In this document: one piece after another, positions 49,354 through 63,003 of the stretch
How the letters are laid out: every line of letters starts with the position of its first letter
How positions within the stretch are numbered: position 1 is the stretch's first letter
NCBI GenBank assembly: GCA_902781465.1
Contig: CACZJK010000002.1
Span: 38,783 to 102,782 of the forward strand
Source: an uncultured Pseudomonadota bacterium
GTDB taxonomy: Bacteria; Pseudomonadota; Alphaproteobacteria; Rs-D84
Length of the DNA: 64,000 nt
Direction of reading: 5' to 3'
Notes under the pieces: generated by a model
Seen by the model: the letters and a program-made list of their open reading frames with translations, nothing else
The model's database searches: none
Told to the model about the DNA's origin: nothing
Translations under genes and position numbers: made by a program

Positions 49354-49362
49354 TGCTAGAAT
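49354..49362 (+). promoter_or_regulatory. Extended -10 promoter of leader copy 1
   Basis: TGcTAGAAT with the conserved G 7 nt downstream; same spacing in copies 2 and 3. Confidence 0.65.
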
Positions 49363-49368
49363 AAATTC

Positions 49369-49547
49369 GTCAGAAAGAGTTTTTCTGATGAGGCTTAAGA
49401 ACCTGAATAATCCGCGTCAAAGATATGACGTTAAATATCTCCAATCAAATATATGGTTGGAGGGCTGTGATATACATAAATAAACGGCGCAATTTTCGGA
49501 TTAAATTGTTCTTAACCTCCAACCGCCCTTTTAAGAGCGGTTTTCTT
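49369..49547 (+). ncRNA. Structured leader RNA, copy 1 (attenuator / C4-CI-like candidate)
   Basis: Three homologous copies with compensatory pairs; ends in an ACCGC..GCGGT hairpin plus T-rich tail. Confidence 0.85.
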
Positions 49548-49570
49548 GTAATAGAAAACGGGGGTAAAAA

Positions 49571-50038
49571 ATGAAAAAATCTGTTTTAATAATGGCGACA
49601 CTTTTATCTGTGCCATCATACGCAACAACCATGTGTGCAGAAAACGATTCTGTTGCAGTAATCCTGGACCCAAGTATTAACGGAACAGGATTTGGATATG
49701 AAAAAAGCAGAGGAACATGGTCAACTTCTTTTCCTTACGGTTATGTATCTGGTATAAGCGTATGTTTGAATAGCAACAAAGGCCAAGGAACTGGTGGATG
49801 GGTGGCAAATTTGACAGACATTAATCCTGATGGCGAAGAAAAAACGGTTGCAGGTTCTGAAAAATATGGTCGTTATTGTTGGTGTAAGGCTACACATCCT
49901 GTGTCCTCGCGTTGGGTATTTAACTCTGATCGAGGATCGGCTTCTTCTTGTAATTCCGTTTGTGCGGAAAACTGTGGGTATTACACACGAATTAACGAAG
50001 CAATGCGCACAGGTTTATTAAATTCAATAAACAATTAA
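49571..50038 (+). CDS. Secreted Cys-rich protein
   Basis: Signal peptide MKKSVLIMATLLSVPSYA; YCWC and CNSVCAENC motifs. Confidence 0.8.
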   Translation: MKKSVLIMATLLSVPSYATTMCAENDSVAVILDPSINGTGFGYEKSRGTWSTSFPYGYVSGISVCLNSNKGQGTGGWVANLTDINPDGEEKTVAGSEKYGRYCWCKATHPVSSRWVFNSDRGSASSCNSVCAENCGYYTRINEAMRTGLLNSINN

Positions 50039-50068
50039 AAAAACGCCCGTATGGGCGTGATTTTGTTT

Positions 50069-50677
50069 TTAATGTGTCTTTGTTCGTTTTGATTCAATAA
50101 ACGCGCGCAGATGGTCGTCGTATGCCAATATGTATGGATTACAAGTGACGATATGGTCTATCTGTAATTTGGCGTCTTTGAAATCTTGCAAATCACAGGT
50201 GTTTGCTTTGCGGACTTCTAAATCATTTGGCATATTTTGACGCTTTTTGGCTGTTTCAAAATTGTCCAGTGGTGGCAAGAACCATAAAACACGAAAATCA
50301 TATTGGTTCTTTTTGTCGTTTTTATTAAACCAACTTATCATCTGTCGAACATATTTGGGCTGAATCACATCATAAGTAAAATTTGCACCCCAATTATTCC
50401 AAATTTCAAATTCTGGCACACCATAAAGCCATTTAGGTTGACCCGGTTGCCAAAATTGTTCGTTCACAAAAAGTTTTGTCGCAAATTTTTCTGTTTCAAA
50501 ATAAGTTTCATCACGAAAATAATATTCGCGACCATCCATTTCACCGTTGCGCATAGGCCGTGTTGTCGCACTGCGTAAATTATAAAACGCACCATAAGGC
50601 AAAACATTTTTTATAAAGTATGATTTACCACTGCCGGACAGGCCTGTACAAAATAAAACTGTTGGTTTTTGTTTCAT
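50069..50677 (-). CDS. Guanylate kinase-like protein (divergent C-terminal half)
   Basis: GLSGSGKS P-loop and the SATTRPMRNGEMDGREYYF GK signature; start ATG 50677. Confidence 0.75.
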   Translation of the reverse strand: MKQKPTVLFCTGLSGSGKSYFIKNVLPYGAFYNLRSATTRPMRNGEMDGREYYFRDETYFETEKFATKLFVNEQFWQPGQPKWLYGVPEFEIWNNWGANFTYDVIQPKYVRQMISWFNKNDKKNQYDFRVLWFLPPLDNFETAKKRQNMPNDLEVRKANTCDLQDFKDAKLQIDHIVTCNPYILAYDDHLRAFIESKRTKTH

Positions 50678-50721
50678 ATCTTTTACCTCATAAAAACCCC
50701 GCACAAGGCGGGGTATTAAAA

Positions 50722-52809
50722 TTAGTCTTCCAAGAAACTGCGTAATTTACGCGCACGTGTTGGATGTTTCAGTTTATTCAACGCCTTTTGTTCAATCTGG
50801 CGGATACGTTCACGTGTCACGCCGATATATTCACCAACCTCTTCCAGTGTGCTGGTTTTATTGGTTGACATACCGAAACGTTGACGCAAAACAGTTTCTT
50901 CTTTTGGATCCAATTCAGACAAAATTTGTGTGACGATTTTACGCAAATTCTTTTGCGCCGCCGAAGTAAATGGATTCTTGGCGGTTTCGTCTGCAATGAT
51001 TTCGATACGTGAACTGTCGTCTTCGCTGCCTACTGGTGCTTCCAAAGACATAGGTTTAAGGTTCACTTTCATTGCCTTGTGAATCTTGTCTACTGGCAAA
51101 TATATAATCTTTGACAATTCTTCAGCAGTTGGCTGACGTCCGTATTTATGCATAAACTGACGCGAAGCACGTTGAATCTTGTGTATGTTATCAATCATAT
51201 GCACAGGGATACGAATTGTACGTGCTTGGTCGGCAATACTGCGTGAAATACCCTGTTGTATCCAGTTAGTTGCATATGTAGAAAATTTATTACCCAAACG
51301 ATAATCGAATTTATCAACCGCCTTCATCAAACCGATGTTTCCGTCTTGGACAAGGTCAGAAAAGTCTAAGCCCAATCCGCGGTTGCTTGATTTCTTGGCA
51401 AATTTGATAACAAGACGCAAGTTCGCCTCTATCATTTCACGTTTTGCACGTGCGGCTTCACTTTGACCACGTCGCACCAATTCAACGACCTTTTTATATT
51501 CAGATGTTGGTTGACCTGCTTCGAAAGCGATTGCGGTAATATCTTCTTGAATTTTCAAGACATCAGCCTGATGTTTAGTAGCAAAGTTTTGCCATGCAGC
51601 GCTTTTGTTCTTTGCCAATTTCTTTACCCAGTTGCGGTTTATTTCGTTCCCTGCATATTCAGCCAAGAAATCTTCGCGTTTGATTTTGCAAGCCAACGCA
51701 AGACGCAACATTTTACCTTCTAATCCCATAAGCAATTGGTCGCGCTGAGTCAATTTTTCCATAATTTCGGCAATTCTTTCGTCGTTAAGACGGATTTTAC
51801 CGACATATTCGAACAATTCTACACGAGATTTGTTATATTTCTTTTCCAATGCTTCATCAGGTGCAGAAGAAGTCAACAAATTTTCCAAACGTTTGGCTTG
51901 CAACTTTTGCATACCAGAAAATACGCGTTTAATCTTTGCGAACAAATCTGTTATCATAGGCATAAGTGCATCTTCCATAACTGGAATCGGCACGCCAGAA
52001 GAACTGCGTTGACCGTCTTCTTTTTTGCCGTCTTCGTCTTCATCCAATTCTTCGTCATCTTCATCGTCAGACGCGACAGAATCTTCCAAGGCATCTAAAT
52101 CTTCATCGTTCAAATCATCAACCTGATCTACGCCTTTGGATTTCAGAGTATCTGCCAAAGCCGCCAATGATTTTTGTTCGGATTCACTGGAATACATAAC
52201 TTCCAAATTCACGATATGGCGCAATCTGATATCGCCGTTTAACAACTGTTGATACCAATCTAACATCGCCTGAATTGTCATAGGGCTTTCGCACAAACCA
52301 TAAACCATTAAACGAGAGGCCGCTTCGATACGTTGCGCGATAGCAATTTCGCCCGCCGCAGTCAACAATTGAACTGTACCGATTTGTTTCAAATATGATT
52401 GGACAGAATCTTGAATTCCAAGAACTAAATTACCCGTAGAACTGCGTTCCAACTGTTTGGCGTAATGTTCGTAATCATCGTCATTAACATCAACTTGTTC
52501 AGCATCAGCATTCAATAAATCACGGGTTTTATCACGATTATAGTTTTCGTCATCATCTTCGTAATATTTTTCCATATCACGAGTAAATCTGTCACCATCA
52601 GTTTCCAGGATTTCCAATTCCAAATCTTGCTTAAAGAATTCCAAAACTTCGTCTTTTTCTTCGTCTGGCACTTCGTCAGCCTGAATCGCAGCATCAAAGT
52701 CCATTTGGGACAGATAACCGTCTTCAGTCGCCGACAAAGCCAATTCTTTCAAACTTTCTGGCAAAGAATCAATTAATAATCTTGTTGCTTCGTCTAGTTT
52801 TTTAGTCAT
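50722..52809 (-). CDS. rpoD: Primary sigma factor RpoD
   Basis: Region 1.1, non-conserved region, [45 protein letters not shown]. Confidence 0.95.
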
Positions 52810-62276: not shown

Positions 62277-62423
62277 AAAAGCTTCCTTTATAGGAATAAT
62301 TATACACTAAAAAAGACATCAATGCCATAAAAACAATGGAATTCGCTCTACATAAATATCTACGCAAAAAGAATTATTTGCTAAATCATAAAAATTCATA
62401 TAACATAATACAAAGGATGGCAT

Positions 62424-62600
62424 ATGAAAAAATTAACTATTTCACAGATAATGAATCTGGCCGACAAATTAAATAAAACAGAGTGGATAACCATACTGAT
62501 AGACCTGAATAATAATGGCCAAATCGATAAATTCTTTCAAACAATAAAACAGACCGACATACTGAACAGTGTTATACAAAATACCGCCCCTACACGATAA
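62424..62600 (+). CDS. Small hypothetical protein (58 aa, not in the ORF track)
   Basis: AAAGGA RBS, ATG 62424 to TAA 62600, ends NTAPTR. Confidence 0.5.
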   Translation: MKKLTISQIMNLADKLNKTEWITILIDLNNNGQIDKFFQTIKQTDILNSVIQNTAPTR

Positions 62601-62634
62601 AAATAAAATTGCCCAAATGGCAATTTAATTTTTA

Positions 62635-62725
62635 TGGCGGAGATAGGGGGATTCGAACCCTCGATACAGTTGCCTGTATACGCGATTTCGAGTCGCGCGC
62701 ATTCAACCAGCTCTGCCATATCTCC
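62635..62725 (-). tRNA. tRNA-Ser(CGA)
   Basis: GGAGATA/TATCTCC acceptor stem, CGCGA-CTCGAAA-TCGCG anticodon arm, long variable arm, GCCA end. Confidence 0.96.
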
Positions 62726-62789
62726 GTTGCGAAAAGATTATATATGTTTATAAATAAAAATCAAACATAAAAACTGTTTTATTTATATA

Positions 62790-62818
62790 TTTACATTTTT
62801 TTACAAATACTTTATAAT
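62790..62818 (+). promoter_or_regulatory. sigma70 promoter of leader copy 3
   Basis: TTTACA-N17-TATAAT with G62825 7 nt downstream. Confidence 0.7.
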
Positions 62819-62824
62819 AAACAT

Positions 62825-63003
62825 GTCAGAAAGAGTTTTTCTGATGAGGCTTAAGAACCTGTTTCAGCATGCGTCTGGATGGACGTTAAAATCTCCAACT
62901 GTTTTTTATTGGTTGGAGGGCGTTGAATATATCGAATTAAACGCGCAATCTCATGTTGAATTGTTCTTAACCTCCAACCGCCCGATTTTCTGGCGGTAAT
63001 TTA
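62825..63003 (+). ncRNA. Structured leader RNA, copy 3
   Basis: First 37 nt identical to copy 1; same helices with covarying stems. Confidence 0.85.

Follow-up and report, generated by a model that had tools for sequence, protein, structure and literature searches.

What a non-coding element of ~180 nt does for the genes that it precedes is the question raised by three homologous copies in one stretch of an uncultured alphaproteobacterial genome of the order Rs-D84 (assembly GCA_902781465.1; 898,703 b in 11 contigs, ~37% G+C, 94.6% complete). The stretch, here called the window, comprises 64,000 nt of contig CACZJK010000002.1 (positions 38,783-102,782, forward strand); the same order holds Enterousia, according to passages of a published account a gut lineage of reduced genome that has no respiration, is without many biosyntheses and depends metabolically on partners (PMC12306168). 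An initial annotation of the window had proposed a structured leader RNA with a terminator/antiterminator switch, and the comparative analysis supports this proposal, since the two competing pairings share nucleotides and are kept by compensatory changes. With a probability of about 0.7, the leader is a cis-acting transcription attenuator with two mutually exclusive folds, located in the 5' leader of secreted-protein operons.

The three elements were found where they had been placed and align over ~180 nt; each is preceded by a -10 hexamer (TAGAAT, TAGAAT and TATAAT) that ends 6 nt 5' of a conserved G, the G being the seventh base. Helices P1, P2, P3, P4 and P5 and the ACCGC/GCGGT hairpin are all present, and so is the 9-bp alternative pairing GGTTGGAGG/CCTCCAACC. 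The first fold, State 1, consists of P1, the long-range P2 together with a further helix, Px, and then P3, P4, P5 and the terminator; of these helices, RNAalifold predicts P1, P3, P4 and part of P2. Px, which is absent from the initial annotation, is a hypervariable helix of 7-9 bp with a different sequence in every copy and complementary strands in all of them, in which the 7-9 nt directly 5' of P3 pair with the segment between CAAU and AUUG; its cognate duplexes average -7.7 kcal/mol vs -1.6 for non-cognate ones, and the cognate partner is the best in 34 of 43 rows. P3 itself exists as described, except that a G previously assigned to it pairs better in Px. In an alignment of 43 copies from this genome, 92.6% of the cells of the 44 State 1 pairs are paired, vs 79.8% after shuffling (a value that none of 500 shuffles reaches), cells changed on both sides number 251 vs 71.6 in shuffles, and slid controls are paired in 36-49% of cells, which bears out the claim that the helices are kept by compensatory change. 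The same picture emerges from 103 copies of other species, chosen by a pattern with both 9-mers and fitted to the model (94.5% vs 70.9% paired; 1055 vs 289 both-side changes). G-U cells exceed A-C cells (170 vs 21 and 326 vs 37), and therefore the structure belongs to an RNA of the gene's strand. The P4 loop ranges from 3 to 12 nt across copies, and a shorter leader subtype without P3 exists in relatives.

The second fold, State 2, is a nested three-way junction made of the closing helix GGUUGGAGG/CCUCCAACC, P5 and a hairpin named P6. GGUUGGAGG has two partners, the upstream CUCCAAC arm, with which it forms P4, and the downstream CCUCCAACC; State 2 draws on bases that belong to P4, to P2a and to the first three terminator pairs, and P6 takes one base of P2b. 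These shared nucleotides confirm the earlier claim that the alternative pairing is incompatible with P4, with the base of P2 and with the terminator's 5' arm, and P6 would in addition exclude Px on steric grounds. In this genome, the closing helix is paired in 99.7% of cells, with four both-side changes vs 0.4 in shuffles; the 9-mer is altered in five copies, and both partners follow. A mutual-information scan of the 103 foreign copies brought out three further features that State 1 does not explain and that the initial annotation lacked. The first is P6, a CAAU/AUUG hairpin whose second pair is A-U in 35 and U-A in eight copies of this genome and unpaired in none; the second is P2', a small RGG/CCY hairpin formed from the freed 5' strand of P2, with a pair that reads A-U in 17 copies, G-C in 13 and G-U in 12. 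The pair patterns of both recur in the foreign copies, where the third feature, a lone long-range pair between the P2 bulge and the base after P5, is U-A in 54 and C-G in 35.

The strongest evidence for a switch comes from 14 distant copies, which were taken from genomes of other families that matched R1 (the covariance model of the leader with which the genome and its relatives were searched) and were not chosen by the 9-mer motif. They carry about ten different 9-mers (among them GGCAGGAAG, GACUGGAAG, GACCGGAAG and GGUCGGGGUG), with a perfect 9-bp downstream partner in 13 of the 14 (-11.5 to -19.9 kcal/mol) and an upstream arm that is complementary yet weaker (-0.4 to -13.7 kcal/mol), that is, a three-way covariation. 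Most of the conserved sequence lies in the junction of State 2, while helices belonging to State 1 only vary freely. Both folds are thus evolutionarily maintained pairings that share nucleotides, in a leader lying between its own promoter and a gene.

How such a leader would work can be proposed from the two folds. In State 1, the OFF state, P2 and Px, each of a different sequence in every copy, would close a junction bearing P3, P4 and P5, with GGUUGGAGG locked in P4 and CCUC closing P2, and the ACCGCC/GGCGGU hairpin and its U run would stop RNA polymerase 10-50 nt before the start codon. In State 2, the ON state, GGUUGGAGG would pair with CCUCCAACC and close the three-way junction with P5 and P6; three bases would be withdrawn from the terminator stem and transcription would proceed into the gene. 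A putative effector, whether a small ligand, a protein or an RNA, may stabilise the sequence-conserved junction and turn the genes on. The minimum-energy fold of the full-length leader is State 1 in all of the 41 copies, ~10 kcal/mol below State 2; when the transcript is cut directly 3' of CCUCCAACC, State 1 is still the lower one in 40 of 41. Because of these computed energies, State 1 and termination would be the default, and State 2 would need help.

The element is not limited to three copies, as had been thought. A profile of the three window copies finds 43 copies at E<1e-5 in the genome contigs, and R1 matches 47, of which 44 score 93-183 bits and three 38-41 bits. A divergent 48th copy (C7:8665-8751, minus strand; C1 to C11 denote contigs) was missed by R1 and found with the Rfam model of sRNA-Xcc1; its 9-mer is GGUCGGGUG, with a matching upstream arm CCUGACC and a downstream CACCCGACC, and it has a terminator with a T run, behind which a gene encodes a repeat protein with a signal peptide. 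Leader copies stand no further than ~1.2 kb from ten contig ends (on C1, C4, C5, C6, C7, C9, C10 and C11); because of this, the assembly is taken to break at leader repeats, and the copy number is therefore a lower bound. A -10 box of the form TAnA[AC]T is present in 43 of the 47 copies, 6-7 nt before the start of the model in 41, and is extended by TG at -15/-14 in 33. At the other end, a hairpin-plus-T-run test is passed by 36 of 42 copies, and the T run is kept in the cross-species consensus.

Tabulation of the downstream genes speaks against a placement that is random with respect to gene starts: an open reading frame (ORF) on the same strand starts within 250 nt of 44 of the 47 copies, adjacent and co-oriented, and the other three reach contig ends. 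The distance from leader end to start codon is typically 11-35 nt (cross-species median, 23.5 nt), which leaves no room for a second promoter between leader and gene, and expression would therefore occur only by read-through; the gene next upstream has a terminator of its own, so the leader units are insulated. A signal-peptide test, a crude one that control ORFs pass at 30%, is passed by 39 of the 44 downstream ORFs, and 36 of the 44 proteins form one cluster. Pfam finds the Listeria-Bacteroides repeat (PF09479) in representative downstream proteins and a kinase-like protein behind one leader, and assigns no family to the 155-aa type found behind copy 1. Many leaders precede two-gene operons, in which a protein of ~250 aa with an N-terminal repeat is followed by one of ~155 aa with a C-terminal repeat; of 53 family ORFs in a motif scan, 21 lie directly 3' of a leader and most of the rest, judged by eye, are the second gene of a pair.

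This uniformity of the downstream genes, which share one cluster and one domain family, would also fit a constitutive structured 5' untranslated region of a duplicated gene family, serving stability, processing or translation, and spread by duplication and gene conversion with no switching involved. State 1 is always the stable fold, and the contig ends at or near leaders mark these regions as repeats that break assemblies. Nevertheless, unrelated genes stand behind the leader, the kinase-like one here and, in relatives, those for XRE-type regulators, phage Rha, pilin-like and membrane proteins; a second, terminator-destroying fold is kept by selection; and a conserved terminator before an otherwise promoterless gene is hard to explain without controlled read-through. 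A constitutive role is accordingly considered unlikely.

The leader is widespread in the order, in which R1 matches 134 of 151 genomes, 106 of the 107 of the genus and 15 of the 22 genera, with per-genome counts limited to 17; among 149 genomes of other families of the class, nine were positive, and eight chance pattern matches in high-G+C taxa had no R1 match. The motif-bearing records are mostly metagenome-assembled genomes named Candidatus Enterousia, Alphaproteobacteria or Rickettsiales, and come from animal guts, rumen and termites. The idea that the leader is dedicated to exported proteins holds in this genome and fails in relatives, where it also precedes XRE regulators, phage Rha and membrane proteins. 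Of 84 genes behind leaders at the foreign loci, 39 pass the signal-peptide test and about 35, by eye, encode XRE-type helix-turn-helix (HTH) proteins of 70-80 aa (PF01381), which in relatives lie behind the P3-less subtype; the distant copies precede lipoprotein-, pilin- and porin-like proteins and membrane proteins, as judged from N-termini by eye. Some species of the genus have 17-21 members of this XRE-type HTH family in a genome of ~1 Mb (e.g., genomes G049, G120 and G136). In one relative, near-identical leader-plus-HTH units (L106:2387-2800 and 6419-6839) are inverted around a 3.6-kb housekeeping block, the genes of which were identified by eye as those for RNase III, signal peptidase and a Mg-chelatase-like protein. 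Tandem arrays of three to five leader units also occur, three at L131:2335-3004 and four or five at L070:45-1112 (both minus strand); each unit has a -10-like box and a terminator, and the arrays stand before a single gene or have no gene between units.

Units of this kind bring to mind free-standing genes for trans-acting small RNAs (sRNAs), similar to sRNA-Xcc1, whose position before genes would be secondary. Such a reading draws on the promoter and terminator that every unit owns, on the gene-less tandem units of some relatives (L131, L070) and on the resemblance of the leader's 3' half to sRNA-Xcc1, an 88-nt RNA seen on Northern blots according to part of a published report (PMC2996969); a terminated leader could, besides, act additionally in trans. 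It has to contend with the location of 44 of the 47 copies directly 5' of a same-strand ORF, typically at 11-35 nt, where read-through is needed, with CCUCC and GGAGG segments that are base-paired in both folds, and with the failure to find Hfq or CsrA in the 94.6%-complete genome or GGTTGGAGG anywhere in it outside leaders. It is regarded as quite improbable. A mobile or recombinogenic DNA repeat (a miniature inverted-repeat transposable element (MITE), a repetitive extragenic palindrome (REP) or a recombination site), whose inverted repeats would act as DNA, agrees with the high copy number, the inverted repeats and the leader-plus-HTH units inverted around a 3.6-kb segment in one relative, but is hardly credible in view of the strand-specific bias of G-U over A-C, the hypervariable yet always complementary helices with a P4 loop of 3 to 12 nt, an orientation and start-codon distance that are fixed and not those of a MITE or REP, and flanks that, in the window copies read, contain no terminal repeats or target duplications.

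Several points weigh against the attenuator reading itself. Within the genome, covariation of the closing helix rests on five of the 43 copies, and the 103-copy alignment is silent on that helix because the pattern by which the copies were selected held both 9-mers; P6 rests on one covarying pair. The hairpin-plus-T-run test is failed by six of the 42 copies, and the U run is weak in copies 2 and 3 of the window. State 2, in the nested model, is less stable by ~10 kcal/mol, and its formation may be transient or may serve folding and not regulation. The start site, termination and read-through are predictions from sequence, and the related sRNA-Xcc1 has been described in print as a trans-acting sRNA.

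If the leader is an attenuator, the candidates for its effector can be narrowed. Cyclic di-GMP (c-di-GMP) and ppGpp were set aside, as no GGDEF or RelA/SpoT gene was found in the 94.6%-complete genome. A diadenylate cyclase (DAC) domain gene is present (C1:306119-306469); the cyclase occurs in 72 of the 107 genomes of the genus and in none of the other 35, vs 106 of 107 for the RNA, and the cyclase-negative genomes include a one-contig genome with at least 15 RNA matches, so that cyclic di-AMP is a weakened candidate too. The genome has one NusG, with no paralogue, and one Rho; an ANTAR search carries no weight here, as its control matched nothing. The small XRE protein as a trans factor cannot be required because it was found neither here nor in 49 of the 107 genomes of the genus, and an RNA in trans with the 9-mer was discarded on the distribution of GGTTGGAGG given above. 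Two other readings were abandoned as well. CUGAUGAG in P1/P2 resembles a hammerhead core; many copies read CUGAUGGGG, the cross-species consensus is without CUGAUGAG, and no hammerhead model matched. For a leader peptide, the AUG after P1 is unconserved across species, and the variable loops differ in length in ways that break a reading frame.

The features of the three copies and of their surroundings are collected in Table 1.

Table 1. Leader copies, their parts and neighbouring features in the window (window positions; C2 positions and bit scores refer to R1 matches).
Feature	Position	Strand	Remark
Copy 1 extended -10 promoter	49354-49362	+	TG-n-TAGAAT; ends 6 nt before G at 49369
Leader RNA copy 1	49369-49547	+	C2:88151-88332, 166 bits
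Copy 1 P1	49369-49389	+	
Copy 1 P2 5' strand	49390-49402	+	
Copy 1 P2 3' strand	49508-49519	+	
Copy 1 Px 5' strand	49408-49414	+	
Copy 1 P6/Px 3' segment	49490-49508	+	
Copy 1 P3	49415-49430	+	
Copy 1 P4 5' arm	49439-49446	+	CTCCAATC; predicted anti-antiterminator
Copy 1 shared 9-mer	49455-49463	+	GGTTGGAGG; partner is P4 arm or 49516-49524
Copy 1 P5	49464-49488	+	
Copy 1 CCTCCAACC	49516-49524	+	CCTC closes P2 in State 1
Copy 1 terminator hairpin and T run	49522-49544	+	ACCGC...GCGGT
Copy 1 downstream gene	49571-50038	+	155 aa, signal peptide, no Pfam family
Copy 2 extended -10 promoter	57560-57568	-	TG-a-TAGAAT
Leader RNA copy 2	57373-57553	-	C2:96156-96335, 183 bits
Copy 2 P4 arm	57478-57485	-	
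Copy 2 shared 9-mer	57461-57469	-	
Copy 2 CCTCCAACC	57401-57409	-	
Copy 2 terminator stem	57383-57403	-	
Copy-2 operon gene A	56531-57256	-	241 aa, signal peptide, N-terminal Flg_new (PF09479) repeat
Copy-2 operon gene B	55934-56404	-	156 aa, signal peptide, Cys-rich, C-terminal Flg_new repeat
Copy 3 -10 hexamer	62813-62818	+	TATAAT
Leader RNA copy 3	62825-63003	+	C2:101607-101788, 180.6 bits
Copy 3 P4 arm	62893-62900	+	
Copy 3 shared 9-mer	62911-62919	+	
Copy 3 CCTCCAACC	62971-62979	+	
Copy 3 terminator stem	62977-62997	+	
Copy 3 downstream gene	63060-63800	+	246 aa, signal peptide; clusters with the gene family
RNase P RNA class A	10333-10667	-	
tRNA gene	32120-32190	-	
tRNA gene	55816-55901	+	
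tRNA gene	62638-62725	-	~100 nt upstream of leader copy 3, opposite strand

In copy 1, all nine nucleotides of CCTCCAACC (9/9) close the three-way junction in State 2, and its ACC opens the terminator stem; a simple promoter/terminator scanner flagged neither the -10 box nor the hairpin of this copy because of a poor -35 and a 10-nt loop. The gene behind copy 3 has an N-terminal repeat resembling that of gene A, with a Pfam score under the cut-off. From leader to start codon there are 24 nt in copy 1, ~57 nt in copy 3 and ~117 nt in copy 2, the extra distance in the last being an inserted palindromic stretch: a palindrome-rich insertion of ~110 nt (57262-57372, minus strand) lies between the copy-2 terminator and the ribosome-binding site (RBS). 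A 16-nt piece of it is found once more, at C7:12453, and a different inserted repeat, GCCGTTCTGGCTGTTC, occurs in other leaders (six sites); these inserts look like small intergenic repeat elements.

Should the attenuator reading be right, a reduced, uncultured bacterium of the gut would have about one transcription unit in every 19 kb under the control of one RNA design, and a single signal would decide the display of secreted repeat-bearing proteins, which would open that signal and the lineage's biology to experiment. It would also give sRNA-Xcc1 another role, that of a switch domain acting in cis; this RNA is routinely annotated in integrons, phages and plant pathogens and has been discussed as a trans sRNA with a link to virulence. 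The ~48 paralogous copies with differing helices form an unusually rich covariation set for the modelling of bistable RNAs.

As regards known systems, the sources consulted in part on Enterousia, Rs-D84 and structured RNAs of microbiomes leave the leader undescribed, and the 3161 candidates in the supplement to PMC8040213 could contain it. The initial annotation held that it matches no known family; this stands insofar as no Rfam family is matched at its gathering threshold, nor at E<=10 over 49000-64000, and does not stand insofar as State 2 is a sub-threshold match to sRNA-Xcc1. Among the other Rfam 15 families, T-box, hammerhead and riboswitches included, the sole match was a chance one to a small nucleolar RNA, at 22 bits.

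With terminator riboswitches such as c-di-GMP-I, the leader shares a multi-helix junction, conserved junction and loop bases, a lone tertiary Watson-Crick pair, competing terminator and antiterminator, many copies, occasional tandems and a coherent regulon; c-di-GMP-I likewise controls many surface and secreted-protein genes per genome. As in a riboswitch, a structured, covarying domain lies in the 5' leader and is joined to a mutually exclusive terminator/antiterminator platform. The difference is that no known class matches the leader, for which ligand sensing would be a candidate property only. T-box, PyrR, TRAP, BglG/LicT ribonucleic antiterminator (RAT) and ANTAR systems have in common with it the terminator/antiterminator/anti-antiterminator logic and a leader of ~200 nt, and T-boxes reach dozens of copies per genome; unlike a T-box, the leader gives no T-box match and has no exposed specifier, its variable segments being paired.

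The closest likeness is to sRNA-Xcc1, a small RNA of Xanthomonas campestris that is present in integron cassettes, phages and plasmids. It is said, in papers citing the work of Chen et al. of 2011, to be activated by HrpG/HrpX, and the title of that work reportedly calls it trans-acting. According to parts of published reports, Xylella has seven copies, five of them in tandem (PMC12189769), and the RNA has been observed to precede symE (bioRxiv 10.1101/2025.06.18.660453) and, in APSE phages, an ORF6N gene (bioRxiv 10.1101/2020.03.17.996009). When the distant copies were scanned against Rfam at a relaxed threshold, three co-located matches to its family, RF02221, came up at 35.7, 33.2 and 28.3 bits, all under the gathering cut-off of 53 bits. 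In this genome the RF02221 model has 11 matches at E<=10, none over the cut-off (best, 43.8 bits), nine of which are inside R1 leaders (26-43 bits), and it has no match on the three window copies. Scores over the cut-off were obtained in three of the 151 order genomes, one of the elements being located upstream of a phage Rha gene with its own upstream arm and terminator, and in 24 genomes of a phylum sample of 151, with up to six matches each.

The State 2 architecture, which was derived from covariation before the Rfam alignment was compared, agrees with the sRNA-Xcc1 consensus: both have the same 9-bp G-rich/C-rich closing helix, hairpin 1 of the form AAUA...GAAUAA, a second hairpin, a joiner of 6-7 nt and a C-rich tail, in the same order, and both are multi-copy and stand upstream of small genes. 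They differ in that the junction here makes up no more than the 3' half of a leader of ~180 nt, with a terminator behind it, and each junction strand has an alternative partner in the 5' half, unlike in sRNA-Xcc1; nor is the element a free-standing unit of ~88 nt, since its promoter lies ~90 nt further upstream and the unit ends near an ORF. In the canonical sRNA-Xcc1 (24 loci examined), the alternative partner is downstream, over the RBS: the region around the Shine-Dalgarno sequence is complementary to hairpin 2 and the joiner, with the gene start ~25-40 nt downstream, and the pairing has -18.7 kcal/mol for cognate vs -13.9 for non-cognate combinations (-24.9 in one example, L190). This contrast is modest, and the cognate ranks first in just eight of the 24, which weighs against the attenuator reading. 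In many of these loci (L174-L197), the hairpin-2 loop and joiner are complementary to both flanks of the Shine-Dalgarno sequence, and ~45-60 nt upstream there is a conserved hairpin that resembles a terminator and has CCCGTCAG as its loop.

These comparisons suggest that the sRNA-Xcc1 family may be a cis-acting translational switch and not, or not solely, a trans sRNA; given the complementarity of hairpin 2 to the RBS region, the junction would then be the ON state in both designs, its formation in canonical elements releasing the RBS, in agreement with the ON role proposed for State 2. More tentatively, and as a possibility that we consider doubtful, the sRNA-Xcc1 junction could be the sensing domain of an unrecognised class of ON switch, an orphan riboswitch or the target of a factor, that is distributed over Proteobacteria and mobile elements and is used with two platforms, occlusion of the RBS in integron, phage and chromosomal loci, and a terminator plus a 5' anti-antiterminator domain in the Enterousia group, where ~48 copies per 0.9 Mb would gate most secreted proteins by one signal. 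Although not a member by the Rfam threshold, the leader is best filed as an extended, terminator-controlling variant of the sRNA-Xcc1 kind.

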